Positions 1 to 64,000 of a stretch of DNA of 64,000 bases are shown here, one piece after another. The translations under genes were made by a program, and so were the position numbers. The stretch lies in the sequence record OQ411014.1; one strand, written 5' to 3'. Origin of the DNA: Escherichia phage EJP2. Under the pieces are notes generated by a model. That model did no database searches, was not told where the DNA came from, and was given only the letters and a program-made list of their open reading frames with translations. The stretch's first letter is position 1. The number at the start of each line of letters is the position of its first letter.

Positions 1-379
1 TAGCAATGCACAAAACAGAAATCACCTGAATTCAGGTGAAAGTACTTCAAGCTATGGTTATTGGAAATATAACTTCGCTGGAGTATCATCGGATACTTTA
101 TACATTACGAACTATGTTCCGTCTGGAAATATCAGAATTGTCGATTCAGTACAACATTATGAATATTATGATATTGACACGGAAAAGCCAAGTCTGTATA
201 CTATATCCGATATCGTAATTAGAAATGAAAAGACATTGTTCAACATGGTATTTCCAACGACTACTAAACTGTTTTCGAAGGAATACATGAAGTTCACAAT
301 TCCATTGTCTCTGATTATGAACAACCAATAAGAACGCGGAGTTCTTATATAACATCAACTACCAAAGAGGTAATATAAA

Positions 380-1852
380 ATGCAAAACGTAAATTTCATC
401 CTAAACGCAGATAGTTACAAGCACTCTCATTTACTAATGATGAAAGAAGGTGTTCAAGCTCTTGAATCAAACATCATTGCTCGTAAACCATCTAAATTCA
501 CCAGTCATGTAGTTATGATGGGTCTTCAGATTTTCGTTCAGGAATATCTGGATATCACAATTACTGCGGCTGATATCGATGAAGCAGAGATTGAAACAAA
601 CGAACGTGGTGATGATTTTGACCGCGACTTCTGGGAACACATCGTGAATGTACACAAAGGTAAACTACCTTTACATATCCGTGCTATCCCTGAAGGTACA
701 GTAGTTCCAGTTGGTATGCCGTTGGTTCGCTCCTTCAGTACTGACCCACGTACTATGGTACTCGCTAGTTTCGTCGAAACTCAATTACAACGTGCAATCT
801 GGTTCCAAACTACTGTTGCATCTAATGCTCGCAGTATCAAGGAATTTCTTGCTGATACTATGGAACGTCATGCTGGTCATCGCTTTGTGGATTATCATCT
901 ACATAACTTCGGCTGTCGTGGTGCAAGTTCCTATGAAACAGCAATGCTCGCAGGTGTAGCTCATGCCGCTCTATTCAGTGGCTCTGACTGCCTATTAGCA
1001 AACCGTAGTATCAAATACTACTACAATACTACTAAACCATATGTTAGTAGTGTTATGGCGAGTGAACACAGTGCTACATGTTCTAACTCCGATGCAGACA
1101 AGCGTGATGATTCAGCAATGGCGTTGAAGATGGTTCGCCTATGGGAAAAGAAAGTAGATAAGTTCATTGCTAATGGTTCAGTTGGTGCACCCCCAATTGT
1201 TTCTGTAGTAATCGATACTTATGATGCTTATCGCTTTGTTCGTGAGTTCATCGGTACTCGTCTAAAATCTACAATCGAAGAGATTGCAGCTAAATGTCCA
1301 AGTGCTAAACTAGTAATGCGTCCTGATAGTGGTAATCCACTAACTATGCCAATCGAAATCGTATCTATCCTTATGGAGAAATTCGGTTCAGTACTGAATG
1401 CTAATGGCATGAAAGTACTTCCATCTTTCATTGGTGTTCTTCAGGGCGACGGAGTTTCAGAAAGTTCAATCCGTGAAATCGTCCACAACCTAGAGAAAAA
1501 GAACTACTCTCTAGAGAATCTAATCTTTGGTATGGGTGGTAAAAACTCCCACGTCGAAGGTGGTCGTGATGCATATTCTTTCGCCCAGAAAGGTTGTGCA
1601 CAGCAACTAGCTGATGGTACTTGGGAAGATTTGTTCAAAGATCCTATTACTGACGTTGGGAAAAAATCCCTTCGTGGTCGTGTAACTACTTACTTGTGCA
1701 AAGAAAGTGGGAAGATGATGGCTGAACGAATCGAACTACAAGAAGTAAATCCTTTCTTAGAAGATATGATGGTTGACATTTTTGTAAATGGTGATATCAT
1801 GAATCTAAGCTCTTTTGATGATGTACGTGCTCGTGCGAACAAGGGATTGTAA
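380..1852 (+). CDS. nadV: nicotinamide phosphoribosyltransferase (NadV/NAMPT family)
   Basis: 490 aa; motifs LNADSYKHSH, AIPEGTVVP, FGCRGASS, RPDSGNPL, LQGDGV match the NAMPT family as recalled; RBS aaagagg upstream. Confidence 0.9.
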   Translation: MQNVNFILNADSYKHSHLLMMKEGVQALESNIIARKPSKFTSHVVMMGLQIFVQEYLDITITAADIDEAEIETNERGDDFDRDFWEHIVNVHKGKLPLHIRAIPEGTVVPVGMPLVRSFSTDPRTMVLASFVETQLQRAIWFQTTVASNARSIKEFLADTMERHAGHRFVDYHLHNFGCRGASSYETAMLAGVAHAALFSGSDCLLANRSIKYYYNTTKPYVSSVMASEHSATCSNSDADKRDDSAMALKMVRLWEKKVDKFIANGSVGAPPIVSVVIDTYDAYRFVREFIGTRLKSTIEEIAAKCPSAKLVMRPDSGNPLTMPIEIVSILMEKFGSVLNANGMKVLPSFIGVLQGDGVSESSIREIVHNLEKKNYSLENLIFGMGGKNSHVEGGRDAYSFAQKGCAQQLADGTWEDLFKDPITDVGKKSLRGRVTTYLCKESGKMMAERIELQEVNPFLEDMMVDIFVNGDIMNLSSFDDVRARANKGL

Positions 1853-1857
1853 TATCA

Positions 1858-1885
1858 ATGGGGAGTCTTAGTACTCCCTTTTTTG
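1858..1885 (+). terminator. hairpin gggagt/actccc followed by T6
   Basis: inverted repeat plus T-tract directly after nadV stop. Confidence 0.6.
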
Positions 1886-1895
1886 CGAGGTTTAT

Positions 1896-2534
1896 ATGTG
1901 GTCTAAAGTAAAAGATAATCTAGATGCGTACATTATCCCACTACACGATGTGGTATGGCTACGAGATGAAGTACGTAAGGCAATGACCGAAGGTTATGCG
2001 TTTCCAGCAGAAGAAGATGAAATTCAAAAAGATGCATCAGTAGTTTCTGATGAAATGATTATCGGTTATCCAGATCCAGAAAATGAAAATATGTTCATGT
2101 TTGGATTCAAAGATGATGATTGTCTGGACGACCAAAGTATCATTGACCACATTACACATCGCTGTTGGGAAGATATTAGTGAAGCTGGTATTGTTTCATT
2201 TGGTGAAATGGAAAGTTTTTCAGCAGTTGTGTATAATGAAGATGTTCCAAATTTCCGTAAGCACAAGACAGAAGTGGATAACTTCCTAACTCATTTGATT
2301 GGTCGATCTATTGTTAGTGATGAGCCATCATTCCTCAATAACACTGCGGAATGTAAAGAATTCATCTTAGAACGATATGATTATGAAAATATGAAACGTA
2401 CTGCGACGAATAAGTGGGGCAACTTCAATTATCGTTTATTTGAAAATGATGAAGGAGATGTCGTGACAATCGTTACATACAATGCTAAACTGATCTCCTA
2501 CTATAACTTCAGATACAAAGACGAGGATCTATAA
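1896..2534 (+). CDS. hypothetical protein
   Basis: 212-aa ORF, gagg RBS, tight spacing with neighbours; no motif recognised. Confidence 0.5.
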   Translation: MWSKVKDNLDAYIIPLHDVVWLRDEVRKAMTEGYAFPAEEDEIQKDASVVSDEMIIGYPDPENENMFMFGFKDDDCLDDQSIIDHITHRCWEDISEAGIVSFGEMESFSAVVYNEDVPNFRKHKTEVDNFLTHLIGRSIVSDEPSFLNNTAECKEFILERYDYENMKRTATNKWGNFNYRLFENDEGDVVTIVTYNAKLISYYNFRYKDEDL

Positions 2535-2535
2535 A

Positions 2536-2748
2536 ATGGTTTTGACTTATCTTTTCATGTTCGGTATGTACGCAGTAACCACTGGTTGTGCATGGTTCCT
2601 GACTTCAATTACATTCATTGGTTGGGCCAATCGTGAAGGTAAAATCAAATACGGCTTGTGGTTCCGTGAGTTCAGTCCTTTTGTAGTACCACTATGGATT
2701 ACAACTATTGTAATTTATATTCTCATCCCAGTAGTATTCTTGGGTTGA
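2536..2748 (+). CDS. small hydrophobic (membrane) protein
   Basis: 70-aa ORF starting one nt after the upstream stop; two hydrophobic segments. Confidence 0.35.
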   Translation: MVLTYLFMFGMYAVTTGCAWFLTSITFIGWANREGKIKYGLWFREFSPFVVPLWITTIVIYILIPVVFLG

Positions 2749-2788
2749 CATTACAGTACTGTTCAAGATTTTCTAATAAGGATTATAT

Positions 2789-3391
2789 ATGACTTGTATT
2801 ATCGCTTTTACTGATGGTAAATCATCCTTCATCGCAGGTGACAAACTAGGTTCCAACGGCTTTACTAAATCAGTAATGGTTGAACCAAAAGTCTTTGAGA
2901 AAGAGTTTCATCGTGTTAGTACCAATGATGAAGGTACTGTGCGGACGCGTGAAACGATGGCACTCGGTTATACTACGTCATTTCGTATGGGACAACTTCT
3001 GTCTTACAATCTAGTACTGCCTGACCAAGATGCGAATCAATCCTTCAGTCAGTACCTGGTTCAGAAAGTAATTCCACTTATTCGTCATATGTTCAAAGAT
3101 GAATGGGGTGCACGTGATAGCTCACAAGATATTGGTGGTGGTCAGTTCATTATTCTGCATAACCACACTATCTACGAAGTTCAAGGTGACTTCTCAGTAC
3201 TGCAACCTAAGACACAAATTACTGCTGTAGGTTCAGGTACTTACCATGCAATTGCAGCTATGCAAGCACTACAAAGTGTTTCATCTGATACTAAGAAAGA
3301 TCTACTACATTACGTACCAACGATTTTTGATATTGTCAGTACTAATGTAACTTCAGTATCTGCTGAACATGATGTATTGCATTACAAATAA
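2789..3391 (+). CDS. HslV/proteasome-like Ntn-hydrolase peptidase
   Basis: N-terminus MTCIIAFTDGKSSFIAGD parallels HslV MTTIVSVRRNGHVVIAGD (Thr after Met); AVGSGTYHAIAAMQAL parallels HslV IGSGGPYAQAAARAL. Confidence 0.5.
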   Translation: MTCIIAFTDGKSSFIAGDKLGSNGFTKSVMVEPKVFEKEFHRVSTNDEGTVRTRETMALGYTTSFRMGQLLSYNLVLPDQDANQSFSQYLVQKVIPLIRHMFKDEWGARDSSQDIGGGQFIILHNHTIYEVQGDFSVLQPKTQITAVGSGTYHAIAAMQALQSVSSDTKKDLLHYVPTIFDIVSTNVTSVSAEHDVLHYK

Positions 3392-3582
3392 TGGTTGATA
3401 TATTTTTCATTGTAATGATGATGCTTGGTGTATTCGGGTTGATTGCAATTACCCGAATCACTGATAGACCATACACAGATAACATTGAACGCGTTTGTAT
3501 GTTTCTACTAAGTACTATAATGTTGGTTATCGTTGGTGTAGTAGGTTCTATGTTTGCAGAACTAATTCTAATTGCGTACTGA
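3391..3582 (+). CDS. small membrane protein
   Basis: 63-aa hydrophobic ORF, start overlaps upstream stop. Confidence 0.3.
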   Translation: MVDIFFIVMMMLGVFGLIAITRITDRPYTDNIERVCMFLLSTIMLVIVGVVGSMFAELILIAY

Positions 3583-3605
3583 TGTACGCTTTTTAAGGAG
3601 TACTT

Positions 3606-3839
3606 ATGGACTTAGCAGATTTGGTTTATGTTGTATCGTTAGTACTGTACGGTATTTGTATAGTACTGACTATGTTAGAATGGAGTACTTGGAGTGATGG
3701 TTTCAAAGAACTAAATGGTGAGTTTACCTCTAAATACTATGCAATTAGTTATTTTATCATGAAGTTAGGTATGATTGGAATGTATGGTATTTTGGGATAT
3801 CTATTCTACTTCTTACCTGAACATATGAGATTATTTTAG
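3606..3839 (+). CDS. small membrane protein
   Basis: 77-aa ORF with ggag RBS; hydrophobic segments. Confidence 0.35.
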   Translation: MDLADLVYVVSLVLYGICIVLTMLEWSTWSDGFKELNGEFTSKYYAISYFIMKLGMIGMYGILGYLFYFLPEHMRLF

Positions 3840-3849
3840 GAGATATAAA

Positions 3850-4281
3850 ATGGCAGGAAAAGGATATTGCAGCCTAAAACTTGATAAAGCACAAGCAAAG
3901 GAATTGAAACGGATTTTAAAAATCGGTGGCGTTGAATGCTTAGACCCTTCGGATTTGCATTGTACTTTAATGTACGATGAAAGTAATCCTAACATCAAAA
4001 TGCTCAAGAACACAAAGACTTATAAAGCTAAAGTAACTGGTGTTAGTAAATTGGGTGATGCGATTGTATTGGATTTGGAATCCCCTGGCATCAAGAAACG
4101 TCATCAGGAATTGAAGAATGCTGGTTATAAGCACTCATTCCCTGAATTGAAAATTCATATGAGCATCAACTACGATCCAAAAAGTACTGATAAGGATTTA
4201 CTAGAACTCTTTATCAAATTGAAGGGTATTCCTTCAGTACTGATATTTGGTAATGAAAAATTTGAATCTCTAAAGCCGTAA
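3850..4281 (+). CDS. 2H phosphoesterase-family protein (LigT/Acb1-like fold)
   Basis: two H-x-T/S-x motifs (HCTL near residue 37, HMSI near residue 113) at the spacing typical of 2H phosphoesterases; 143 aa. Confidence 0.5.
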   Translation: MAGKGYCSLKLDKAQAKELKRILKIGGVECLDPSDLHCTLMYDESNPNIKMLKNTKTYKAKVTGVSKLGDAIVLDLESPGIKKRHQELKNAGYKHSFPELKIHMSINYDPKSTDKDLLELFIKLKGIPSVLIFGNEKFESLKP

Positions 4282-4291
4282 GGAGTATATA

Positions 4292-5050
4292 ATGGACGTG
4301 AATAAATTTCTTGACAACAAAGGACAAAAGCGTCTGTTAGTACTAACTGGTGCGGGTTTCAGTGCGGAATCTGGAGTTAGTACATTTCGTGATGCAGAAG
4401 ATGCCCTATGGGAAGGTGTGAAGATTAACGATGTATGTAACATTGCGAGCTTAGGCTTTAAGTACGCACAAGTACATGCATTCTACAACACACTAAGAAC
4501 TATCATCAAGGACAAAGAGCCTAACGAAGCACACTATGAAATTAGCGTTATGGAGTCAATGTACGGGGATAACTTCCTACACATGACTGCTAATATCGAT
4601 GATTTATATGAGCGTGCTGGTGGCACTGCTATGCACCTTCATGGCAACATCAAAGAAGTCATTGAGAACTATTCAATGGCACATAACGACTTTACAGTAC
4701 TGGATGTTGGATATGAAGTTTATATTCCAAAGGAAGGTGTATTTGCTAAACCTAATGTAGTATTCATTGGTGAATCAGAGCGTTATGTGAATAACCAGCG
4801 TATTCCGTTGTATGAAGAACGAAATAAAGTACTGGCATCCTTGACAGACTTAGATACCGTTGTTATCATTGGTTCATCGGATACAATCCTGAAGTGGAGT
4901 TCGTTGGTTGGTTTAGGCACACCAGCTTATACCATCAACATCAACACAAGAAAGAATGACACTGACTGGGCGTTCGATAAGAAGATTTACAAGCCAGTAA
5001 CTAAAGCGTTATTGGAATTGAGGGAGTTAGTTCTTACACGGATGGGATAG
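4292..5050 (+). CDS. Sir2-family protein lacking the zinc ribbon
   Basis: GAGFSAESGVSTFR, TANIDDLYERAGG, HLHG, PNVVFIGES, VVIIGSS match sirtuin core motifs; no CxxC pairs after the HG motif. Confidence 0.7.
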   Translation: MDVNKFLDNKGQKRLLVLTGAGFSAESGVSTFRDAEDALWEGVKINDVCNIASLGFKYAQVHAFYNTLRTIIKDKEPNEAHYEISVMESMYGDNFLHMTANIDDLYERAGGTAMHLHGNIKEVIENYSMAHNDFTVLDVGYEVYIPKEGVFAKPNVVFIGESERYVNNQRIPLYEERNKVLASLTDLDTVVIIGSSDTILKWSSLVGLGTPAYTININTRKNDTDWAFDKKIYKPVTKALLELRELVLTRMG

Positions 5051-5059
5051 GAGTGAGTT

Positions 5060-5614: not shown

Positions 5615-5624
5615 AGGATAAAAT

Positions 5625-9798: not shown

Positions 9799-10568
9799 AT
9801 CGTGAAAAGATGCTTTATCATGCAAAAGAAAAGGGTTGTTTGAATTTTGATATCTACACAATGAAACGTGAAACACGTGATAACCTGGACTTCCTTTTGG
9901 ATGGTGACTTTTTAGATTTCAAAACAGACAGTGCATTCGGTAATGATCGCAACAGTAAATGGCAGGAATACGTAATCACCAATAGGGGTATTGCATTACT
10001 GGGAGTGTATCGTCTTGAGTATGCACATCTCAATGAACGTGATACTGAAAAACATATCGGTCGCATCGAACAACTTCGTGAATTACTTGATGTTGTTGAT
10101 GTAAAGCTAACTGATATTGAATATGCATTTACGAATAACCAACGTAAATCAGTGAACTACATGAACACCAACTATCCTACTGGTGCAAGTACATTAGTTC
10201 ACAAGATAAAAGAACAAGAAAAAAGTGTTGACACAACTCCCAATGATGAGCTATCATTACTCTCGTTGTTTGAGTTCAGTACTGAATTAGGTAAAAAAGG
10301 TTCCAGTACTAAACGCTCTGACGATTATGTCCTGAAGAAGTGTATGGAAGAACTTGGTGAGTTAGCTCTTGAAGTTACTATCAGTCAAGGTGAATCCTAC
10401 AAAGAACCAGGCAAAGATGGTGTCAAAGGTGAAGCAGTAGATTTAGCGATTTGTGCACTTGACATGTTCGCATTACAATGTAATAATATGAGTCCAGACG
10501 AGATAGAACGTGAGTTCTTGACTTATATGACAACTAAAGTGAATAAGTGGAGAAATACTCTAAAATGA
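9795..10568 (+). CDS. hypothetical protein
   Basis: 257-aa ORF; the C-terminal stretch ELGELALEV...GEAVDLAICALDM is acidic but matches no family motif recognised here. Confidence 0.45.
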   Translation: MNREKMLYHAKEKGCLNFDIYTMKRETRDNLDFLLDGDFLDFKTDSAFGNDRNSKWQEYVITNRGIALLGVYRLEYAHLNERDTEKHIGRIEQLRELLDVVDVKLTDIEYAFTNNQRKSVNYMNTNYPTGASTLVHKIKEQEKSVDTTPNDELSLLSLFEFSTELGKKGSSTKRSDDYVLKKCMEELGELALEVTISQGESYKEPGKDGVKGEAVDLAICALDMFALQCNNMSPDEIEREFLTYMTTKVNKWRNTLK

Positions 10569-16828: not shown

Positions 16829-16881
16829 TTATAAAGGAGGTATAAATAAGTTATCGGATATCTATAACTAAGGGATATGAA

Positions 16882-26666: not shown

Positions 26667-26671
26667 TATTT

Positions 26672-26701
26672 TTGAGATGAATGAAAATTTTGTGATATAA
26701 T
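26672..26701 (+). promoter_or_regulatory. sigma70-like promoter TTGAGA-N18-TATAAT with TGTGA
   Basis: ttgaga 26672-26677, tgtgatataat 26691-26701; fires into an ORF-free region. Confidence 0.55.
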
Positions 26702-26704
26702 GTA

Positions 26705-27175
26705 TAGTACGGATAACACCTATGTTGAATGTCTTTGATAAACAGAACCTGATCCACTCGAAAATGTAGAGGGCAGATGAGTAGAACATTCACTACGAAG
26801 TGCAAATGAAACCCGTCAGTAATAAAGCGTAAGTGCGGTCATACAAACGAGACGTAAGACACACGCGACACGGCAAAGCGGCACTATAAAAGCGATAAGA
26901 AAACATATTCGCTCTTGATAGACTTATGAGGCATACTCACCCAGTTGAAAGGGAGTCTCTTTACGGAGAGACAGCAGTATTTGTTGCTGAATTAGCAAGT
27001 ACTGTAAGCGTGTGAGGAACACGACCGTTGTATGCAGACTGTAGTAGCTGGAAACAGGACAACCCGCCAGCGTTGCTACTTTTATTTGTACGGGAAAGAT
27101 CCGTCCAAAAAGTAGTGAATCTACAAATTCAGATTGGTAAGACTACCAGCGTCAGGATATTCCTGATTTTTTTTC
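26705..27175 (+). ncRNA. candidate structured non-coding RNA (about 470 nt), identity unknown
   Basis: no ORF of 60 aa or more on the plus strand; locally GC-richer; bounded by promoter 26672-26701 and hairpin plus T8 at 27153-27175; internal perfect hairpin gtctct/agagac. Confidence 0.3.
27153..27175 (+). terminator. hairpin cagga/tcctg followed by T8
   Basis: short stem and long T-tract at the end of the ORF-free region. Confidence 0.5.
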
Positions 27176-27354: not shown

Positions 27355-27765
27355 ATGAGTCAGTTAGAACCAATTGTAGGATCTTATAATATTTTCTTCA
27401 AAGATACCAATGTAACACCAAGCAGTTCATATAACCAAAATACACGTGTAAGTACTTACACAATTGAGCATTTAAGTACTGGCAAGAATTTCAGTACTGA
27501 ATACGGGAAGTACGTCCAGAAGAACTCCGATTGTTTTCAGCTATTTCGTAACTCCCCACGTCAAGATATTTTACTAATCACAAACGAAGTGGAGTTCCGT
27601 CAAAGATCTCTTGATTTCCCTAATGCAGTTCATTATACTATTAGTGATATCGACTTCATCAAAGTACTTGTTCATTACGACGAAGTATCAAAGGTAAGTA
27701 CTTTTGAGGATTTGTCTTTTGATGAAGTAATTGCACTCAAGGATAAACTATATGAAAGCAAGTGA
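27355..27765 (+). CDS. hypothetical protein
   Basis: 136-aa ORF with aggag RBS. Confidence 0.5.
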   Translation: MSQLEPIVGSYNIFFKDTNVTPSSSYNQNTRVSTYTIEHLSTGKNFSTEYGKYVQKNSDCFQLFRNSPRQDILLITNEVEFRQRSLDFPNAVHYTISDIDFIKVLVHYDEVSKVSTFEDLSFDEVIALKDKLYESK

Positions 27766-28782: not shown

Positions 28783-29144
28783 ATCCGTTCGTACTAGAAG
28801 ATATGCTGTGTAAGTACTTTGAATTCAACATGTACAATAAAGAAAAATTGGCCCCTTGGGACGAAAGATGTTTGTTCGAAATATTGAGGCATAATTTTGA
28901 AGATGAACGCAGTCTATATGATACAGTACTGAAGTTAGTTGATATACTTAGTTCTACATTTGACGAACAGGTATTTGTGGCTTCATACCCAAGTAATTAT
29001 AGTGCTGTAGTTCATCCAAATGTTGTTTACCTTGATGAATTTGCATTCGGAAGAACATATCCAGAATGCAAAATTATCATTGCGTTCAACTATATGAATG
29101 TTGATGTTTCTTATAATGGTGTCCTTAGATATATAGTAAGATGA
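28728..29144 (+). CDS. hypothetical protein (start uncertain)
   Basis: ORF overlapping upstream gene; candidate starts 28716, 28728 or 28803. Confidence 0.4.
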   Translation: MDIYDVPGSIRVYDESRVNPFVLEDMLCKYFEFNMYNKEKLAPWDERCLFEILRHNFEDERSLYDTVLKLVDILSSTFDEQVFVASYPSNYSAVVHPNVVYLDEFAFGRTYPECKIIIAFNYMNVDVSYNGVLRYIVR

Positions 29145-29178
29145 TAAATATTCTATATCATTATATGAGGATTATTTT

Positions 29179-31390: not shown

Positions 31391-31870
31391 ATGTGGTTAT
31401 TTCTATTTTGTTTGATAATGGCATTTGCAACAGTGCAATTGTTCTTTGAGATGGTACATTCTGGTGTATTCGGAGATAGATTGTACTTCAAGGTGAAGTT
31501 TATTGGATTTGATGTAAACACTGAGCGTTCACAGGTGATCCGTACATTAATAATGATGTATCATTCTGGTAAGTACAAAATTGAACTGAACAAGCAGACA
31601 TTATATTTCATCCAAGAAGGCGAGAACAGTACTGAATACATTGTGGAGTGCTTACATGTAAGTGATGTGAATTCATATAAGTACGGACGTTTTGCTGGTA
31701 TTACTAGTACTACAATGGATAACCGAGGCATAATTGATTTCGACACTCGGATGATGTTGTATGATATTGTTGCTGAAGCAAAAGAGCCTGAACCACCAGC
31801 AGATGTTCCAACTTACCAGTACTCAAACTTGAAAGGTTTCTTTGCCCCTAAACAGGATATCGAATTATGA
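31391..31870 (+). CDS. hypothetical protein with N-terminal TM helix
   Basis: 159-aa ORF. Confidence 0.45.
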   Translation: MWLFLFCLIMAFATVQLFFEMVHSGVFGDRLYFKVKFIGFDVNTERSQVIRTLIMMYHSGKYKIELNKQTLYFIQEGENSTEYIVECLHVSDVNSYKYGRFAGITSTTMDNRGIIDFDTRMMLYDIVAEAKEPEPPADVPTYQYSNLKGFFAPKQDIEL

Positions 31871-33282: not shown

Positions 33283-33426
33283 ATGAAACTACTCCGTAAT
33301 AGCTTATTTGCGTTTTACATGGATTATCAAATCTCGCTAAAACTAAATCCAGTACTGACAGTACTAGGAACAGCCACTGTTGCAGCTTTCACTGCATGGT
33401 TAGTTACACTGTTTTGTGCTCTATAA
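33283..33426 (+). CDS. small hydrophobic peptide (47 aa, below ORF-track cutoff)
   Basis: translated by hand: MKLLRNSLFAFYMDYQISLKLNPVLTVLGTATVAAFTAWLVTLFCAL; RBS aaggaa; directly downstream of promoter. Confidence 0.4.
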   Translation: MKLLRNSLFAFYMDYQISLKLNPVLTVLGTATVAAFTAWLVTLFCAL

Positions 33427-33441
33427 TCTTAGGATAACAAA

Positions 33442-34071
33442 ATGACAACTCACGTTAGGTATTATATTGCATATAATGGAAGACCAGTTCGTTCTATTGG
33501 ATTAGATCTTGAGCCAGTAATGTCTGTACAGACTAATCTATACTTCAGTACTGAAGAAGAAGCAGACTCTTTCATTATGACTAGGATTGCAACTGCGTCC
33601 ACTACACTTTATCATATTCATTTTGATTGTATTGATAAGTACTCAATCGTCAAAGAAATTGTTCAGTTGGAACCGTGCAGTACTAAAACTAATTATATGC
33701 GAAACTATACTCTAACTTGGTTGCGATTACTCGACCAGGATATCTGTACTGATTCTATGATTTCCACTACTATACGTGCGTTCGTCATGCGTGGGTTTAG
33801 TACATCAGGATTGGATTTAGAAGAAGTGAAAAACTTGATTTTGGGTAATCCAAAACTTCAAAAAACCATTGACAAACTTATTCCAAAGCATATAATCTCT
33901 AATATTGAAAATTACATGCAAGATGGTTTAGTCAATGCTCCGGTGGAAGAGCTTGAATTCTTGAATCTAACAATTTCAGATGAAATGAAATTTGATCTTG
34001 ACTTCGAAGAACTCTTCCCTTACAATAAGTTCAAACCAACAAAATGGGAAAATCATGGAACTAGTAACTGA
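33442..34071 (+). CDS. hypothetical protein
   Basis: 209-aa ORF. Confidence 0.45.
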   Translation: MTTHVRYYIAYNGRPVRSIGLDLEPVMSVQTNLYFSTEEEADSFIMTRIATASTTLYHIHFDCIDKYSIVKEIVQLEPCSTKTNYMRNYTLTWLRLLDQDICTDSMISTTIRAFVMRGFSTSGLDLEEVKNLILGNPKLQKTIDKLIPKHIISNIENYMQDGLVNAPVEELEFLNLTISDEMKFDLDFEELFPYNKFKPTKWENHGTSN

Positions 34072-45202: not shown

Positions 45203-45285
45203 TCCCTTTCAGTACATTAGATTTAATCCTCCAATAAATAACATTATACGAATATTCTATAATACCAATTTTTTGGAGGATTAAA

Positions 45286-47975: not shown

Positions 47976-48051
47976 CTAGTAACTACATTATGTGATAATT
48001 TTCTGATAAATATATTAAAGATAATTTTCCTTGTGAATTGGAGATCAATAC

Positions 48052-48741: not shown

Positions 48742-48768
48742 TAATAAAAGTACTTTTCAGTACTACAA

Positions 48769-54376: not shown

Positions 54377-55351
54377 ATGAAAAACAAAATCAATGAAGCA
54401 TCTATCAAACTTGATGTGAACGGTCTTGAGTCATCTGACTTCGATACCTTATCCCGTATGCTTGCTCTAGCTGGTCAAGCTGAAACACAGGGTGGTAATA
54501 ACCCTGGTATGTCCGAACTACCAAAAATGAAAGCATTCGACTTTGATGCATTTGGTGGTGACGAAGCTGAAGTTGAACCAATTCCTTCTGCTGATCCATT
54601 TGGAGAGCCGGAGGCTGAACTTTCCGTCGAACCAATGGCAGAACCTGAAGTTGGTTCTGAAGAAGAACTTTCTCTTGACTTAGATGGTTCACCGTCACTA
54701 GAATCTGGTGATGAGTTCGAAGAAGATGATTTCGATTTCGGACGTATGTCTGAACTAGCTGGTCTAGGTGAAAGTGTTTCTCTAGCAACTTCAGAAGACG
54801 AAGCTGGTGAAGGTGAAGTAGAAGATGCTGATGAACTTGCCAAAGATGAAGAAGATGCAGCAGCAGAAGAACTTTCTGAAAAACTACTCCCTGACCTATC
54901 TCTAGATGAAGATGCTGAAGCACGATCTGACGATGGTGATCGTCACCACGTTGTGGATTCAAAAGAACATGGTCCATTCAGTACTGAACGTGAAGCTGTT
55001 CATGATGCAATGCGTGTAACCAATGGTACTGAATTCGAACATTTTGCTATCATCCCAGGAAAAGACGGTTATTACTGGAGACGTAACCTACAAGAAGGTT
55101 TCGATAACGAACCAGAACCAGAAGTTGTTGATATGGATGGTATTGAAAATAGTCGTCATGAATTCAAACGTGTTCCAGGAACTGCACTTGGTGATAACCC
55201 ACTAAAAGAATCTGAAGATGAAGACTCAGATAAGTGTGACAAATGCCACGAAGATCCATGTGAGTGTTCGGACGAGAAACTAGATGAAGATGTATCTGAC
55301 ATTCTAGAGAGCATCAATGCTCGCTACAATGAATACATCAAAGGTCTATAA
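54377..55351 (+). CDS. highly acidic low-complexity protein with C-terminal Cys cluster
   Basis: long D/E-rich tracts; CDKCHEDPCEC near the C-terminus; 324 aa. Confidence 0.5.
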   Translation: MKNKINEASIKLDVNGLESSDFDTLSRMLALAGQAETQGGNNPGMSELPKMKAFDFDAFGGDEAEVEPIPSADPFGEPEAELSVEPMAEPEVGSEEELSLDLDGSPSLESGDEFEEDDFDFGRMSELAGLGESVSLATSEDEAGEGEVEDADELAKDEEDAAAEELSEKLLPDLSLDEDAEARSDDGDRHHVVDSKEHGPFSTEREAVHDAMRVTNGTEFEHFAIIPGKDGYYWRRNLQEGFDNEPEPEVVDMDGIENSRHEFKRVPGTALGDNPLKESEDEDSDKCDKCHEDPCECSDEKLDEDVSDILESINARYNEYIKGL

Positions 55352-57817: not shown

Positions 57818-57840
57818 AAACAAACCGAGGAAATCATATA

Positions 57841-59253
57841 ATGAGTAAATTCAATAATTTGTCTACTAAACTTCCCGATTCAGTTTTGCAAGAATGTAAT
57901 GAACGTATGGTACTAGCTCGTACTTCACTGATGCTCTCTAAACCATTCTTTGGTGTTTTGGCATCTCGTCTTCGCCCAGTACCGAATGATACTTGGTGTC
58001 GTACGATGGCAGTAGATGGCAAACACTTGTACTATAACGTAGAATTCGTTATGGGTTTACAAGACCAAACTAAACGTGCACAATACGAAGAAGCACTAAA
58101 AGAATCAATCGACGATATCAGTACTGAACAAATCAATGACGTACTGAACGGTCTATCTGACCAGAACCTGATTGCTGTACTGTGTCATGAAATTCTTCAC
58201 TGTGCTTATGACCACTTCTTGCGTCGTGGTATGCGTGACCCACAACTGTTCAACAAAGCTGCTGACTATGCAATCAACCAGATTCTAGTTCGTGAAAACA
58301 TTGGTAAGATTCAGTCTTCTTGGTTGTACGACAAGAAATATGACGGAATGACCGCTGAAGAAATCTATGTTCTTCTTGAAGAAGAGAAGAAGAAAGAAGA
58401 GCAAGAAAACGGTGGTGGTGATGGCGACGGTGATGGTTCCGATGACCAAGATGGCGATGGTGACGGAAACAGCAACGGTGGTGGTAAGAAGAAAGGTAAG
58501 AAAGGTAAAGGCGGCACAATTGACCAGCATGACGTACCACAAGAAGGTGATGGTGAAGTAAGTGATGCCAAGCGTCGTGAATATATGGAAGATTTCAAAA
58601 CTGCAATGATGAACGCAGCACGTGCTGGTGGTACTCCAGCAGAAATCGAACGTATGATTGACTCCTTCACTAAACCAAAAATCGACTGGCGTTCTAAACT
58701 ACAACGTACTATGCGTTCTTGCATGAAGTCCGATGTAATTTTCTCTAACCCAAGTCGTCGTTCTTGGAGTACGGGCTTCGGTCACAGTGGTTCTTTCTTT
58801 GGTTCTCCTATCTTCCCAGGACTGAAACCAGATGAAGATATTGATATTGCAATTGCACTTGATGCGTCAGGTTCTATCAGTAATGATATGTTGCGTGACT
58901 TCATCAGTGAAGTGATGGGAATCACCAAACAGTTCAAACAGTTCAAGATTCGTATTATGACTTTTGATACTAAGGTTTATACTGTTCGTGATTATAAAAC
59001 TGGTGAAGAGAAGAAGATTCTAGAATATCCAGTTCATGGAGGTGGTGGTACTGATTTCCAAGCAGTTTGGGATCATATGCGTGATGACAACTACCGTCCA
59101 AAACAACTCGTAATGTTCACTGATGGTGAGCCGTGGGATTCCTGGGGTGACGAAAACTATTGTAAGACTCTTTTCGTAATCCACTCCAACCCTGAAAAGA
59201 TTGCACCATTCGGTGAAACCGTACACTACGAGTACGAAGCGAAGCAACACTAA
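57841..59253 (+). CDS. HExxH metallopeptidase-like domain plus vWA domain protein (DUF2201-like architecture)
   Basis: HEILH motif; G/D and K/G low-complexity linker; MIDAS-like DASGS in IALDASGSIS; 470 aa. Confidence 0.7.
   Translation: MSKFNNLSTKLPDSVLQECNERMVLARTSLMLSKPFFGVLASRLRPVPNDTWCRTMAVDGKHLYYNVEFVMGLQDQTKRAQYEEALKESIDDISTEQINDVLNGLSDQNLIAVLCHEILHCAYDHFLRRGMRDPQLFNKAADYAINQILVRENIGKIQSSWLYDKKYDGMTAEEIYVLLEEEKKKEEQENGGGDGDGDGSDDQDGDGDGNSNGGGKKKGKKGKGGTIDQHDVPQEGDGEVSDAKRREYMEDFKTAMMNAARAGGTPAEIERMIDSFTKPKIDWRSKLQRTMRSCMKSDVIFSNPSRRSWSTGFGHSGSFFGSPIFPGLKPDEDIDIAIALDASGSISNDMLRDFISEVMGITKQFKQFKIRIMTFDTKVYTVRDYKTGEEKKILEYPVHGGGGTDFQAVWDHMRDDNYRPKQLVMFTDGEPWDSWGDENYCKTLFVIHSNPEKIAPFGETVHYEYEAKQH
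58381..58515 (+). repeat. low-complexity tract within the CDS (E/K-rich, then GDGDGDG, then G/K-rich)
   Basis: encodes EEKKKEEQENGGGDGDGDGSDDQDGDGDGNSNGGGKKKGKKGKGG. Confidence 0.8.
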
Positions 59254-59261
59254 TATAAATA

Positions 59262-59298
59262 ATGCGTAAGTTCAGGATGTTCTTACGCATTTTATTTT
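59262..59298 (+). terminator. hairpin atgcgtaag/cttacgcat followed by T-rich tract
   Basis: perfect 9-bp stem, 11-nt loop. Confidence 0.65.
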
Positions 59299-59316
59299 GA
59301 GATATCATAAGAAATT
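59287..59316 (+). promoter_or_regulatory. sigma70-like promoter TTGAGA-N18-TATAAT with TGTGA
   Basis: ttgaga 59287-59292, tgtgatataat 59306-59316. Confidence 0.55.
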
Positions 59317-59358
59317 GTGATATAATATGAGTACAATAAACAATACATGGAGTGTATT

Positions 59359-59589
59359 ATGAGTGAACAAAACCAAGAACAACTAAGCATTGAAATTGAA
59401 GATATCATCAATGCAACCAAAATCATGGAAGCAGCAATCAAAGCGGGTGCTTTCGGTGTTGAAGACTTAGTAAAAGTTGCACCAATTGTTGACCGTTTCA
59501 TCAAGTTCAGTAATGCAATTATTGAACAACACAACAAAAATGTTGAAGCTCAAGAAGCGGCACAAAATGGAGGTACTGACCATGAGTAA
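59359..59589 (+). CDS. hypothetical protein
   Basis: start at ATG 59359 with ggag RBS downstream of promoter. Confidence 0.45.
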   Translation: MSEQNQEQLSIEIEDIINATKIMEAAIKAGAFGVEDLVKVAPIVDRFIKFSNAIIEQHNKNVEAQEAAQNGGTDHE

Positions 59590-60232
59590 GATTATCCGTC
59601 ACCAAGGTGTAGTTCGTAGTACTGGTTCCCGTGTGTTCGTTCTATGGCGACACATTCCTGATGATATCAACCACTGCCTAGTCATTTATCGTGACTCTAT
59701 TCCTGAAGTTTATATGCATACAGTGAATGAACTTGTAATGAATCAAGGTCAGAAAAGCGTTGAACTATGGGAAGTGATGGATAAAGTTGGTTATCTTGAT
59801 AATCGTAAAATGCTTGATGTTCTACACAATCTAGGTTATATTCGTAAGCAACGTACATGTGACATTGACATGCACGTGGGTGGTGGTGCGAAAGTTGCAC
59901 TCGACGAACTAAATGCTAGTATTCTTGAAGAGCGTATCCATCAAGATGGTAAAGTCAAAGACTTCAACCCATTTGATGCAAATGCACAAGACAGTACTGC
60001 TGAACGTGGTACAATCGTTGATAAACTAATTGCAGATGCAGAACAGTATCTACGTCTTCATGAAGAAAATCTTGAACGTGCTTATAACATCGACCCATCT
60101 CGTCGTCCAGTAGTTGAAGCGGCTGGTGAAGAAGATGATACCACATTCTCTATCGTTCTTGAGAAAGGCGTTTCCCAAGCGAAAGCAATTGAAATCGTCA
60201 AAAAAGCACTAGCAGCACAAAAGGCAAAATAA
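59582..60232 (+). CDS. hypothetical protein
   Basis: start at ATG 59582 (ATGA overlap); 216 aa. Confidence 0.45.
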   Translation: MSKIIRHQGVVRSTGSRVFVLWRHIPDDINHCLVIYRDSIPEVYMHTVNELVMNQGQKSVELWEVMDKVGYLDNRKMLDVLHNLGYIRKQRTCDIDMHVGGGAKVALDELNASILEERIHQDGKVKDFNPFDANAQDSTAERGTIVDKLIADAEQYLRLHEENLERAYNIDPSRRPVVEAAGEEDDTTFSIVLEKGVSQAKAIEIVKKALAAQKAK

Positions 60233-60233
60233 T

Positions 60234-60530
60234 ATGACTCGTGATGAAATCATTCAAATGATTCTCACTGAGCGTAATCGTCAAACAGAGAATCCAAACA
60301 CTGTTTCTGACTTACACAAAACCAAAAATGATTGGGCTGCTTTGGCAGCCTATTATTTGTTTGAAGGTGCAAGTCGTTCCGATAAACATGTATCTTTCGA
60401 AGAGTTTCGTAGTTCTCTAGTTCAAACTGCTGCCGTCATTATTGCAGCACTAGAAACCAGCTATGCTCATGAGAATGAAACGGTTCGAGATTTACTATCT
60501 CAACTGGAAAATAAAGATGACAAGCAATGA
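60234..60530 (+). CDS. hypothetical protein
   Basis: 98-aa ORF. Confidence 0.45.
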   Translation: MTRDEIIQMILTERNRQTENPNTVSDLHKTKNDWAALAAYYLFEGASRSDKHVSFEEFRSSLVQTAAVIIAALETSYAHENETVRDLLSQLENKDDKQ

Positions 60531-61107
60531 GTTACAACTTGCTCTTAGTGATCTAGATAATGTATGTTATAGTGGCGGTGCTAAAGGGGCAGACCGCCTC
60601 TTTGGTATCTGGGCTACTGAAAATGGTTTTCAAGAAGTACATTTCTCTTTCAAGAAACATAATTATGTTGTAGATGAAAGTACTATCATTGAAATTCCAG
60701 ATTCGATTCTACAGGATAGTACTGTAATCGATAAACTCAAGAAAGCGAACTACTCTTTAGGAAGAAGTATTCCAAAGAAAGGTTCTTATGTTTATAATCT
60801 ACTTGCACGTAATACGTTTCAAGTTCTTCTTACTGAACGTGTGTATTGCATCAGTCCTTTAGCATCACCAACAACCGTTTCAGGTGGTACAGCATGGGCT
60901 GTTCAAATGTACATTGACCAGTACGAGAATCCTGTAATTTACGGTTATGACCCACTTCGGAAAGAAGCATATCAGTACTGTAATACTAAGAAAGAATTCA
61001 TTACAGTTGATTCTGTTCCAGCACCTACTGGTAAATGGACAGGTATTGGTTCACGTGAAACTACAGAGAATCACATGCAAGCATTCGTTAGTTACTTCAG
61101 GAGTTGA
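60517..61107 (+). CDS. Rossmann-like nucleotide-processing protein (SLOG/LOG-like, tentative)
   Basis: YSGGAKGADRLFG and SPTTVSGGTAWAVQ resemble the glycine-rich LOG/SLOG motifs; start at ATG 60517. Confidence 0.3.
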   Translation: MTSNELQLALSDLDNVCYSGGAKGADRLFGIWATENGFQEVHFSFKKHNYVVDESTIIEIPDSILQDSTVIDKLKKANYSLGRSIPKKGSYVYNLLARNTFQVLLTERVYCISPLASPTTVSGGTAWAVQMYIDQYENPVIYGYDPLRKEAYQYCNTKKEFITVDSVPAPTGKWTGIGSRETTENHMQAFVSYFRS

Positions 61108-61373
61108 TGATGAGTGATGAGTGTGATAATTGCGATTACCGTTATGAATCAGGCCACAGAGACGGATATGAGCAAGGTTGTAAAGACTCCAGTTCGGAAA
61201 ATTACGAACAAGGTTATAAAGATGCAAAAGACGAAGGTGCTAGAGAATTAGATGATCAATTAGCGAACATGAGTTCGAACTTCTCTAGTGTAATACGAGA
61301 TTTAGTTGCAAGGAATAAGCAACTACAGCAAGAAATTTATGAGATAAGGAAATCCAATGCAACAGCTTCATGA
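61104..61373 (+). CDS. hypothetical protein
   Basis: 89-aa ORF, ATGA overlap. Confidence 0.4.
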   Translation: MMMSDECDNCDYRYESGHRDGYEQGCKDSSSENYEQGYKDAKDEGARELDDQLANMSSNFSSVIRDLVARNKQLQQEIYEIRKSNATAS

Positions 61374-62289
61374 TTTATATTCAAAAGTACTAAACGAAGG
61401 TGTCACATCAGAAGACCGTACTGGTACTGGTACTATCAAACTGATTGGTCAACAAATGCGTTTCGATTTGAAAGAAGGCTTCCCAGCGACAACAACGAAA
61501 CGTCTAGCATGGAAAGCAATGACTTCTGAACTGTTGTGGTTCCTCGAAGGTTCACAAAACGAACGTCGTTTATGTGAAATTCTACATGGTACTACTGACC
61601 CAGAGAAACGTACAATCTGGACTGGTAACTATGAGAATCAAGGACAGAAACTTGGATACGTCAATGGCAATCTCGGCCCTGTTTATGGTAAACAATGGCG
61701 TGAGTGGGAAGATGTAGTTATCCTTCCTGGTGTGTACACTGAAGTAGTAAAACATACTGAAATGGGTTACAATCTAGTTGAACGTACTACTAGTGGTATG
61801 TATGTAATGCAACGTACTATTGACCAGATTGCAGTACTGGTTGATGGTTTGAAGAATGATCCAAACGGTCGCCGCCACATCCTATCTGCATGGAACGTTG
61901 GTGATTTAGATAAGATGGCACTACCACCTTGTCATAGTTTTGTTCAGTTCTTTGTGGTTGATGGTAAGCTAAGTTGCTCACTATATCAACGCAGTGCAGA
62001 TCTCTTTTTAGGTGTACCATTCAATATTTCAAGTTATTCTCTACTAACTCATATGCTTGCACAAGTGTGTGGTTTGGATGTTGGTGAGTTCATTTGGAAT
62101 GGTGGTGACTGTCACATTTATCTAAACCACATCGACCAAGTTCGTGAACAATTGTCACGTGAACCAAAAGAATTACCACAATTGTGGTTGGATGAAAATA
62201 TTACTGATATTGATACATTTACAATGGATTCGTTCAAACTTCTGAACTACAATCCTGATTCAGTAATCAAAGCACCAATGGCAGTTTAA
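61357..62289 (+). CDS. thyA: thymidylate synthase (ThyA family; dUMP hydroxymethylase not excluded)
   Basis: DRTGTGT, GPVYGKQWR, SAWNVGDLDKMALPPCH, LSCSLYQRSADLFLGVPFNI, GGDCHIY closely parallel E. coli ThyA; active-site Cys and Asn conserved. Confidence 0.85.
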   Translation: MQQLHDLYSKVLNEGVTSEDRTGTGTIKLIGQQMRFDLKEGFPATTTKRLAWKAMTSELLWFLEGSQNERRLCEILHGTTDPEKRTIWTGNYENQGQKLGYVNGNLGPVYGKQWREWEDVVILPGVYTEVVKHTEMGYNLVERTTSGMYVMQRTIDQIAVLVDGLKNDPNGRRHILSAWNVGDLDKMALPPCHSFVQFFVVDGKLSCSLYQRSADLFLGVPFNISSYSLLTHMLAQVCGLDVGEFIWNGGDCHIYLNHIDQVREQLSREPKELPQLWLDENITDIDTFTMDSFKLLNYNPDSVIKAPMAV

Positions 62290-62292
62290 TGC

Positions 62293-62326
62293 CAAAATAA
62301 AAGGAGCCTAATGGCTCCTTTTTTAT
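62293..62326. terminator. bidirectional hairpin aggagcc/ggctcct flanked by A-tract and T-tract
   Basis: sits between convergent thyA (+) and the minus-strand fibre gene. Confidence 0.8.
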
Positions 62327-64000
62327 TATCTGTATGTTATGATGACACGACCATTAAAGCGAACATCTGGTGTTGCCGGAATGGACAGTACTGCATTAGT
62401 AGGGGAGATAGATACACTATCAACTTCTACTAGGTTGTAATTAGAACCAACTAGTTCTTGAACTACGATTGACTGAATGTTAGTACCTGTGATAGTATAA
62501 GTGTAATATGAACCACTTAATACCCAAGAACTTGTAGTAAATGATTGTTCAACACCACCACCACTTACAGTAGTCCATTGACCATTTGACTTCTGCATTA
62601 CAGTGTTACGTTGAGTACTGTAAGCAATCATACCATCTTCACCCACAGCGTTGTCTATTGGATTAAGTTTAGGAAGACCAATACCATAACGGTTGAACTT
62701 AGTTCTTACTGCTGCTCCATCATTAATTGTCATATCACCAAAAGCTGTCATGTCTAATTTTAGATTACCAGTAATTTGTGATATTGCTGTTGCAGTTGTT
62801 GCATGTTCAAATGTCAAAATTCCTGCTGGCATCATGTTAAGATTTTTGAATCTATTACTTGAACCATTGAAAGTTGTAGTTGTTTGAAAAGCACTATTCG
62901 CATTAACAACGAGAGTATCAGTATTTGTGTCACCGAGAATTGTATTCCCCTTAACTGTCATATTAGCATCAGTAATAACTGCTCCGTGGAATTCAGTACT
63001 GGCATCTTTGAACTCAACTTGGTTCTTATTTGCAATACTAACGGTCATGATATTATTGATTGCACTTAGACCAACGTTCGCTGTATTACCAGTACCTTGG
63101 AATTGTAATGCAGGAGCAGTTGTTGGGTTAACGTTAGCTGCTTGAATTACAATAATACCAGTTGGGTTGATTCTAAATTTCTCAACTCCTGAAGTACTGA
63201 AACCCATTGTTCCGGTTGCTTGGTGGAATATACCAGTTTTAGTATCAGTCCATTGTGTTGGGTCAATACCAGTATTAGTTACTGGGTCATATAATGCATC
63301 GTTAAATGCAATTGCTGGTTCAGTAGCAGAGCCATATACAACACCTAAACGTCCTTTACCTGCACCACCCTTGTTCATAGAGTCACCTGTGCGACGTAGA
63401 GCACCTAGAGCGGACGCATCGATAATAGACTGTACGGTACTATCATCACCTTCAAAACCGCGTCCTGAGCTATCTAGGAGCGTACTATCATACATTACAG
63501 TACTTGCAAGAATACTTACACGGCTGTTACGTAGGCGTTGTGCACGAGTACCGTTAAGGATTACCCAGTCACCATCGGTTAATGCTCTTTCTGTTGCTGG
63601 AGTTGCAGTGCTGACAAATGCATCAGTTAATTCGGTATCTTCAGCAAGGGAAGTTAAACCACCATGACCTGCTGGAACTGGAGTGATAATACGTCCGAAT
63701 GCGGATGTTACTTGACGAGAACCAGGAACGGTTGGGTTCGAATCTAGGTAGTACTTTATTTGTAACCAGTTACCTTGTCCACTAGGGTTTGTTGGTGTGA
63801 AAATAACCGAAGCTGCTGCTGTTGGGTTTGCATTGAAGTGAGTTTGTGCAGCATTCATAATACCACGAACGATATAGTACTCACCTGAGTTTGCCGTTGT
63901 TGGTGTGGGGAGTGGGGTATACACACCTGGGGTTAATGGTGGATCAATATCATCAGATAATGGGGAATATGTACCCACATAATGTAGCCCTGCTAATATC
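62326..64000 (-). CDS. tail fibre / tail spike-like protein, 3' part (N-terminus lies beyond the window)
   Basis: only minus-strand gene; S/T/G/N-rich with beta-helix-like repeats; ORF open to the window edge. Confidence 0.55.
   Translation of the reverse strand, partial: ILAGLHYVGTYSPLSDDIDPPLTPGVYTPLPTPTTANSGEYYIVRGIMNAAQTHFNANPTAAASVIFTPTNPSGQGNWLQIKYYLDSNPTVPGSRQVTSAFGRIITPVPAGHGGLTSLAEDTELTDAFVSTATPATERALTDGDWVILNGTRAQRLRNSRVSILASTVMYDSTLLDSSGRGFEGDDSTVQSIIDASALGALRRTGDSMNKGGAGKGRLGVVYGSATEPAIAFNDALYDPVTNTGIDPTQWTDTKTGIFHQATGTMGFSTSGVEKFRINPTGIIVIQAANVNPTTAPALQFQGTGNTANVGLSAINNIMTVSIANKNQVEFKDASTEFHGAVITDANMTVKGNTILGDTNTDTLVVNANSAFQTTTTFNGSSNRFKNLNMMPAGILTFEHATTATAISQITGNLKLDMTAFGDMTINDGAAVRTKFNRYGIGLPKLNPIDNAVGEDGMIAYSTQRNTVMQKSNGQWTTVSGGGVEQSFTTSSWVLSGSYYTYTITGTNIQSIVVQELVGSNYNLVEVDSVSISPTNAVLSIPATPDVRFNGRVIITYR

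Follow-up and report, generated by a model that had tools for sequence, protein, structure and literature searches.

The palindromic hexamer AGTACT occurs 243 times in a 64,000-base stretch of the genome of Escherichia phage EJP2 (sequence record OQ411014.1; this whole stretch is hereafter called the window). In 83 instances, it is part of the octamer CAGTACTG and, in seven, of the full 12-bp form TTCAGTACTGAA. The excess arises at the level of the DNA, it is a trait of one lineage of enterobacterial jumbo phages related to phage RaK2, and relatives of EJP2 carry the same word at a fixed register within their early promoters. With a probability of about 0.45, we read AGTACT (preferred form, CAGTACTG; full form, TTCAGTACTGAA) as a distributed, operator-like site for a two-fold symmetric, lineage-specific and most probably phage-encoded DNA-binding protein.

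Abundance, DNA-level nature and symmetry of AGTACT

The window has a G+C content of 38.3% and is 93% coding, with 94 open reading frames (ORFs) called, nearly all of them on the plus strand. Under base independence, 21.0 copies of AGTACT, 0.77 of CAGTACTG and 0.007 of TTCAGTACTGAA are expected. Dinucleotide-preserving shuffles yield 23.4 ± 4.5 hexamers and 1.3 ± 1.2 octamers, and shuffling of codons inside genes yields 47.9 ± 5.4 and 5.6 ± 1.2, respectively. The most generous null used, a synonymous-codon shuffle that holds each protein and the codon usage of each gene fixed, raises these expectations to 74.0 ± 6.7 (z = 25) and 11.7 ± 2.5 (z = 28). AGTACT is the most deviant 6-mer and CAGTACTG the most deviant 8-mer of the window; the enrichment is nested, increasing from 2.7-fold for GTAC to 11.6-fold for AGTACT and 108-fold for CAGTACTG. 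The original prediction, made from the letters of the window alone, had claimed that the hexamer is at least 10-fold over-represented throughout, and the exact count bears this out. All 17 octamer start positions it gave for the first 10 kb are correct, while its tally of 37 hexamers in the same interval was one too few (38 by exact count; 19 + 19).

Each 4-kb bin of the window contains between 6 and 25 copies, against 1.3 expected. The spacing is roughly exponential with a mean of 264 bp (coefficient of variation, 0.91), and neither a helical nor a codon-independent period was found among the short-range spacings examined. The only signal of that kind is mild: pairs of sites 9–11 bp apart are enriched about 2-fold (19 versus ~9, pooled). 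Other spacing peaks were rejected as evidence of periodicity, as they stem from orthologous pairs counted across related genomes.

The plus-strand copies occur in all three codon phases (110/30/79), and 79 of the 94 ORFs carry at least one. Non-coding DNA, 6.6% of the window, harbours 17 copies at a density (~4.0 per kb) equal to that of coding DNA (3.8 per kb), with the 226 others (93%) being intragenic; the only long minus-strand gene is as densely populated as plus-strand genes. Within genes, no positional bias was detected, the distribution over deciles being flat. Only six pairs of sites have similar flanks, and the contexts are otherwise unique. The claim that the copies are found in every codon phase, in unrelated genes, on the minus strand and between genes has therefore been confirmed. 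Because the non-coding density is equal, all phases are used and the flanks are symmetric (see below), the constraint behind the excess acts on DNA, not on protein.

The pressure is nevertheless strong enough to shape the proteins. Ser-Thr is the most over-represented dipeptide in the window (observed/expected, 1.68; for Thr-Ser, 1.04), and 73.5% of the Ser-Thr pairs are spelled AGTACT, where 17% is expected from codon usage. Likewise, 71% of the Val-Leu pairs are spelled GTACTN (26% expected). The original prediction had also inferred such an effect on proteins, but the example it chose, the STEEE motif of a paralogue array, does not hold: it contributes almost nothing, since only seven AGTACT sites lie in an S-T-E-E context and AGTACTGAAGAAGAA occurs once. 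The possibility that the excess simply follows from codon usage, from the composition of the proteins, from recurring protein motifs or from paralogues is refuted: synonymous shuffles do lift the expectation to 74 hexamers, from 23 in dinucleotide shuffles, and AGTACTGAAGA is present in 11 copies, but the observed counts are 25–28 standard deviations above those protein-preserving shuffles, the non-coding density is equal, three phases and unique flanks are involved, and the flanks show a symmetry that genes lack.

In the window and in four relatives, the sequences flanking AGTACT are two-fold symmetric regardless of gene orientation. At ±1, C is favoured (0.4–0.54) and G is avoided (0.04–0.11); at ±3 and ±4, the preference is for T to the left of the site and for A to its right. 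The half-extended words CAGTAC and GTACTG are equally frequent, with 161 and 175 copies in the window and 561 and 555 in EC22.5-2, a complete Asteriusvirus-type genome of 351,992 bp. The consensus is accordingly a palindrome of 12–14 bp, TTCAGTACTGAA, a size typical of the operator of a dimeric protein. Variants that keep GTAC (NGTACT) are enriched 1.9–3-fold and AGTATT/AATACT 1.24-fold, and none of the one-step neighbours of AGTACT is depleted. This looks like graded, weight-matrix-like selection accompanied by a halo of decayed sites, and not like the conversion of near-matches. The flank preference has drifted within the lineage, because Mimasvirus (phage GAP32) accepts either A or C at −1. 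The top 8-mers between 100 and 150 kb of GAP32 (locus L004) are TGCACCAG, GCACCAGT and TTGCACCA, with 13–14 copies each, instead of CAGTACTG.

Lineage distribution and the early promoters of relatives

The window derives from a RaK2-like (“group 2.2”) jumbo myovirus, the closest isolate being Erwinia phage Hallingskeid (~77% nucleotide identity in conserved genes). Its gene order is like that of Hallingskeid and PBECO4 and, in the neck–tail module, like that of GAP32. Recognisable genes include those for NAMPT, PIN-PhoH, NrdD/G, RNA ligase, a metallopeptidase-vWA protein, the tail sheath and the tail tubes. AGTACT ranks first or close to first among the hexamers in Hallingskeid (8.8-fold excess), RaK2 (6.9-fold), GAP32 (6.8-fold) and PBECO4 (6.0-fold). 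All IMG/VR loci with a tail-sheath identity to the window of 65% or more have a 5–9-fold excess; for those with a sheath identity of 49% or lower, it is 0–2-fold with a sole exception, L022, at 4.1-fold. No excess was found in phage T4 (0.7-fold), Pseudomonas phage PA5oct (1 copy versus 8.4 expected), Xanthomonas phage XacN1 (0 versus 6.3) or a 50-kb sample of Escherichia coli K-12 (3 versus 11.6); per kb, the E. coli host is ~40–60 times poorer in AGTACT. The excess, common to all close relatives tested and missing from the host sample, is thus a trait of one lineage, the enterobacterial RaK2-like jumbo phages.

The complete genome of EC22.5-2 contains 919 copies of AGTACT (7.7-fold) and 204 of CAGTACTG (3.4 expected; 59-fold), which is the top 8-mer there too. 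Each of its full 10-kb bins has at least 11 hexamers, against 3.4 expected, and the density is 4.65 per kb in non-coding and 2.43 per kb in coding DNA.

A different palindrome in distant relatives was considered and rejected, the only cases being mild. In the exceptional locus L022 (IMGVR_UViG_3300027985_000659; tail sheath 39% identical), AGTACT occurs 18 times versus 4.4 expected, and, in L020 (IMGVR_UViG_3300033072_000363; sheath 48% identical), GGTACC occurs 15 times versus 3.2 (4.7-fold). Both may represent the phenomenon in a weaker or an independent form, built on a GTAC core.

The conservation of individual sites was assessed in alignments of the window with three relatives, with all hexamers and hexamers of the same composition as controls. 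Between 31 and 39% of the AGTACT sites of the window are retained in a relative, compared to 16–22% for all hexamers and 14–24% for those of the same composition (odds ratios over the latter of 2.1–2.9, p ≤ 7e-4). Sites are thus moderately conserved. Since 61–69% of the sites are not shared, with the homologous sequence often differing by two to three bases, the quantity maintained is mainly the density of sites rather than their position.

In the first 25 kb of Hallingskeid, which consist of tiny early genes, non-coding DNA carries 14.6 AGTACT per kb and coding DNA 5.2. Here, 20 of the 24 sigma-70-like promoters on the sense strand read TTGACA-N9-AGTACTG-TATAAT or TTGACA-N9-AGTACTGG-CATAAT. 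The N9 varies freely, while the register of AGTACTG is fixed. In many of these promoters, a second AGTAC(T) abuts the −35 hexamer, 20–22 bp upstream of the first, so that the sites span about −20 to −14 and about −41 to −36. An exact-pattern scan in IMG/VR for this architecture yielded 14 matches in RaK2, 16 in an Asteriusvirus-type contig and a few in each of several further contigs from the lineage. Contigs without an excess of AGTACT gave isolated matches, which are consistent with chance. EC22.5-2 has 17 such promoters, clustered between 30 and 48 kb, where the density of AGTACT peaks at 5.6–6.9 per kb. As the pattern recurs in Hallingskeid, RaK2, the Asteriusvirus-type contig and EC22.5-2, AGTACT is a conserved, register-fixed element of early promoters across genera. 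In the early-promoter regions of L036 (Hallingskeid 1–25,000), L044, L047, L048 and EC22.5-2 (30–48 kb), AGTACT reaches an enrichment of ~20-fold, and dozens of tiny early genes are headed by families of near-identical promoters that read (C)AGTAC(TA)-TTGACA-N9-AGTACTG(G)-YATAAT.

These promoters modify one statement of the original prediction, namely that known Chi, uptake-sequence or promoter signals do not explain the motif. It stands for the first two, AGTACT being a perfect palindrome without orientation bias, but only in part for promoter signals, given its fixed place in the early promoters of relatives.

Eight tandem paralogues of an RCC1-like protein (“regulator of chromosome condensation”) adjoin the early region of Hallingskeid (L036, 23,542–33,003). 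In the paper on phage phAPEC6, RCC1-domain virion proteins are proposed as candidates for the inner body of the capsid. The phAPEC6 inner body and its RCC1-domain virion proteins show that DNA-associated proteins travel with the genome; nothing ties them to AGTACT.

A candidate operator and its alternatives

In the proposed reading, selection would keep the density of sites at about one per 260–400 bp wherever the sequence can vary, that is, at synonymous positions, in tolerant dipeptides, in the spacers between Shine–Dalgarno sequence and ATG, in terminator loops and in promoter spacers. In early promoters, one site would lie between the −35 and −10 elements (−20 to −14) and the second would abut the −35 element, about two helical turns upstream, so that a dimer bound there would collide with RNA polymerase. 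Occupancy there would gate early transcription, most simply by shut-off. The thousands of dispersed copies, in turn, would allow genome-wide occupancy, by which phage DNA, marked or coated, could be told from the motif-poor DNA of the host. A phage-encoded reader is favoured because T4, on the same host, has no excess, because the host sample is motif-poor and because a promoter-spacer site is most readily understood if the factor is one that the phage makes or injects. Among the three roles put forward originally, the binding site of a dimeric protein fits best, by virtue of the symmetric footprint that extends to TTCAGTACTGAA, and the target of a modification is disfavoured.

Several points weigh against this reading. 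The promoter evidence comes from relatives: none of the 14 sigma-70-like promoter hits in the window contains AGTACT, the early region of this genome falling outside the window, and promoter copies account for less than 5% of all AGTACT. In a subset of the promoters, the TG of AGTACTG also serves as an extended −10 element; hence, part of the conservation could reflect contacts with RNA polymerase. Binding of the putative protein is deduced from symmetry and promoter position. A repressor with two to four sites per kb in late genes would be expected to hinder transcription and replication, and the gradient of density from early over middle to late genes could follow from sequence constraint alone. 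Finally, the enrichment tracks Enterobacterales hosts, and a host-encoded reader is therefore possible.

A more far-reaching version, which we consider speculative and rather improbable, is that of a self-identity code. A phage-encoded and possibly virion-delivered dimeric reader would act on TTCAGTACTGAA-type sites every few hundred bases; it would distinguish phage DNA from the motif-poor chromosome of the host, protect or organise that DNA and act as the switch of the early promoters. These phages have neither a phage nucleus nor hypermodified bases, and the code would play the role that hypermodification has in T4, with a strength sufficient to have reshaped codon choice and dipeptide content over ~350 kb.

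The best surviving alternative, though an unlikely one, is that a sequence-specific DNA enzyme acts on AGTACT. It could be a methyltransferase/restriction pair of the ScaI type, a modifier of the Mom type, an endonuclease that nicks DNA or initiates recombination, the phage type II topoisomerase, or the terminase, for which the word would be a distributed signal for packaging or self-recognition. Dimeric type II enzymes classically target short perfect palindromes, AGTACT is the recognition site of ScaI, and the low density in the host would suit self-recognition for packaging. In the cyanobacterial repeat HIP1 (Highly Iterated Palindrome 1), a comparable word is methylated and has lately been linked to DNA uptake. 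Furthermore, nearly all other 6-bp palindromes have been purged, which makes an unprotected excess of AGTACT risky unless the sites are occupied or modified. Indeed, 23 of the 64 are absent from the window, and comparison with protein-preserving shuffles reveals strong avoidance (AAGCTT, 0 versus 14.9 ± 3.5; CTGCAG, 0 versus 22.6 ± 3.8; GGATCC, 0 versus 5.9), with GATC reduced to 92 copies versus 199 ± 9. This looks like strong purging of restriction sites from largely unmodified DNA, against which the excess of AGTACT would stand out all the more.

Nevertheless, a published comparison of native with amplified DNA by nanopore sequencing in Hallingskeid and in Mimasvirus phage Kaldavass reported modification at GATC, CCWGG and TGCAT only, hence none at AGTACT, and no nicks; the TGCAT modification, reported in Kaldavass, is unexplained. 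The symmetric footprint of 12–14 bp exceeds typical type II sites, and an enzyme substrate leaves the fixed register inside early promoters unexplained. Mom-type modification was rejected: the homologue of RaK2 ORF149, the Mom-like protein, is sporadic among phages and apparently neither common to the lineage nor co-distributed with AGTACT, and no Escherichia, Erwinia or Cronobacter phages are among the records and organism tallies listed. A Pfam scan of 10 of the 94 ORFs in the window, which was not a systematic search, gave no match to a methyltransferase or nuclease family; the larger part of the genome lies outside the window.

Neutral molecular drive, by which biased (very-short-patch-like) mismatch repair or biased gene conversion tied to a phage nuclease would generate AGTACT without any function, is very unlikely. 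The high turnover at a maintained density agrees with it (61–69% of the sites are not positionally conserved, the homologous positions being often two to three bases off), as does the tendency of AGTACT to fill any free position, including Shine–Dalgarno spacers and terminator loops. However, the conversion of near-matches should deplete one-step neighbours, and none is depleted (AGTATT/AATACT, 1.24-fold; NGTACT, 1.9–3-fold); very-short-patch-like conversion was rejected on this ground. Moreover, sites are conserved two to three times better than words of the same composition, the promoter register has remained fixed across genera while the adjacent N9 diverged freely, and the flank preferences are graded and symmetric out to ±4.

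We regard it as highly improbable that the phage co-opts a protein of its Enterobacterales host, whether to block cell division or to draw host machinery onto its own DNA. The first protein to consider is SlmA, a nucleoid-occlusion factor that binds a site with an AGTACT core (GTGAGTACTCAC). Host co-option would account for an enrichment that is limited to phages infecting Enterobacterales and does not extend to relatives that infect Pseudomonas or Xanthomonas, and early promoters must function before phage proteins exist. The SlmA half-site, on the other hand, requires G1, T2, a purine at position 3, A4 and G5, while position 3 is C in 40–54% and G in 4–11% of the phage sites, without enrichment of G1 or T2 further out. 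One full match to the SlmA site is present in the window, GT[AG]AGTACT occurs seven times versus 7.8 expected, and T4, on the same host, has no excess of AGTACT. SlmA was therefore rejected: the flanks selected by the phage are the wrong ones.

On reading the sequence, LexA was rejected as well. Its half-sites, CAGTA and TACTG, do occur, yet in an everted and overlapping arrangement; the order found in a LexA box, CTGT-N8-ACAG, is not formed, and only one pair of sites is at 18 bp. We know of no other E. coli regulator with an AGTACT-type site.

Individual sites and comparison with known systems

The coordinates of the array, of the seven full palindromes and of notable single sites are collected in Table 1. 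Between genes, AGTACT occupies whatever sequence is free, be it a terminator loop, a Shine–Dalgarno spacer or an intergenic doublet.

Table 1. AGTACT sites and related elements in the window (positions in bases; a strand is given where it applies).
Position	Strand	Element	Remarks
1..64000		Dispersed array of AGTACT	243 copies, including 83 CAGTACTG and 7 TTCAGTACTGAA
1387..1398		TTCAGTACTGAA palindrome (12 bp)	Inside NAMPT-like gene
1860..1884	+	Terminator-like hairpin GGGGAGTCTTAGTACTCCCTTTTTT	AGTACT in loop and stem (site 1870); read from sequence
3599..3604		AGTACT as Shine–Dalgarno-to-start spacer	Second such case; before start 3606
10275..10286		TTCAGTACTGAA	
15906..15917		TTCAGTACTGAA	Inside nrdD
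27490..27501		TTCAGTACTGAA	
30718..30729		TTCAGTACTGAA	
31385..31390	+	AGTACT as Shine–Dalgarno-to-start spacer	Whole spacer between AGGAG and ATG at 31391
33351..33365		Intergenic doublet CCAGTACTGACAGTACT	Sites 9 bp apart (33351/33360)
33544..33555		TTCAGTACTGAA	
44469..44485		Intergenic doublet AAGTACTTTTACAGTACTG	Sites 11 bp apart (44469/44480); upstream of ORF starting 44519
48749..48764		Intergenic doublet AAGTACTTTTCAGTACT	Sites 10 bp apart (48749/48759); upstream of tail-tube ORF starting 48820
54977..54988		TTCAGTACTGAA	In virion structural gene
62326..63978	−	Only long minus-strand gene	7 AGTACT, 4.2 per kb

T4-late-type boxes (TATAAATA or ATAAATA) were noticed at ~16,830–16,881, 29,120–29,178, 45,240–45,285 and 48,000–48,051, upstream of large structural genes including that for the tail sheath; late-type TATAAATA boxes have no fixed relation to AGTACT in the window. 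Two stretches without an ORF are unusually long, 26,667–27,027 (361 bases) and 28,783–29,178 (396 bases). The latter contains, on the minus strand, CAGTACTGTATCAT, which resembles the early-promoter core. A tRNA scan of the whole window found no tRNA gene.

In anatomy, the closest known thing is HIP1 (GCGATCGC), an octameric palindrome of cyanobacteria in 15–300-fold excess, methylated by two orphan methyltransferases and lately linked to transformation. Both words are perfect octameric palindromes within that range (CAGTACTG, 108-fold in the window and 59-fold in EC22.5-2), and both are found inside genes in all frames as well as between genes, at roughly one or more per gene. In both cases, the excess is lineage-wide and sites are conserved above control words, implying selection and not neutral replenishment. 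The function of HIP1 was obscure for decades. The two differ in that HIP1 resides in cellular chromosomes of cyanobacteria and CAGTACTG in virus genomes of ~350 kb that infect Enterobacterales; HIP1 is methylated, whereas AGTACT has no reported modification in two relatives (Hallingskeid and Kaldavass); and AGTACT has a fixed place within early promoters, while HIP1 has not been found to regulate genes.

With regard to the proposed mechanism, the closest systems by analogy would be dispersed repressor operators and genome-coating repressors of early promoters. The stoperators of mycobacteriophages L5 and Bxb1, temperate phages whose repressor is known, are asymmetric 13-mers that point in the direction of transcription, lie mainly between genes and number ~0.5 per kb. 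Like the conserved inverted repeats of phiC31, they combine the operator of an early promoter with many genome-wide copies of one short site, as AGTACT may do in the relatives (919 copies in EC22.5-2); one DNA-binding protein thereby controls the whole genome. AGTACT differs from stoperators in being palindromic, denser (2.5–7 per kb) and 93% intragenic, in a lineage of virulent jumbo phages. The phage proteins TF1 of SPO1 and p6 of phi29 are histone-like; they cover the genome and keep early promoters repressed. That is the mode proposed for the AGTACT reader, a phage protein that would organise DNA and shut early promoters, but TF1 and p6 recognise modified DNA or bendability, not a sharp palindrome of 8–12 bp; we know of no comparable k-mer excess in the genomes of SPO1 or phi29.

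The GATC/Dam/SeqA system of E. coli likewise has a palindrome at about one per 250 bp, helical-phase clusters in regulatory DNA and one genome-wide reader, but SeqA needs hemimethylation, which has not been reported at AGTACT, and GATC is not 100-fold over-represented. The SlmA site shares the central AGTACT, is palindromic and is bound by a dimeric helix-turn-helix protein of the host; the flanks it requires differ from those of the phage. Chi, the DNA uptake sequences (DUS/USS) and KOPS are also short words in excess that label a genome as “self” or give a DNA machine its direction, but they are asymmetric and biased in strand or orientation, while AGTACT is strictly symmetric. Chi itself (GCTGGTGG) is present in the window at 4616, 18847, 32406, 34403, 57271 and 58624 on the plus strand (six copies versus 1.3 ± 1.0 in synonymous shuffles) and at 31793 and 47416 on the minus strand; EC22.5-2 carries 16 and 12 copies on its two strands, with ~1 expected on each. 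This enrichment may provide protection from RecBCD.

We found no prior description of the excess of AGTACT or CAGTACTG, or of the promoter element, for this phage group in the open-access literature, although an earlier mention elsewhere is possible; the papers on RaK2, CBB and phAPEC6 and the jumbo-phage reviews do not mention the motif.

If a protein reads AGTACT, this jumbo phage family (RaK2, PBECO4/121Q, GAP32, CBB and relatives) runs an undescribed genome-wide DNA-marking system, one that would be strong enough to dictate codons and amino-acid pairs. It would also offer a tractable viral counterpart to the unresolved problem of HIP1 in cyanobacteria. AGTACT provides a ready-made early-promoter element, probably an operator, and a simple diagnostic k-mer signature by which members of the lineage can be recognised in metagenomes. 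For the engineering or recoding of these phages for therapy, the synonymous loss of sites may not be neutral.

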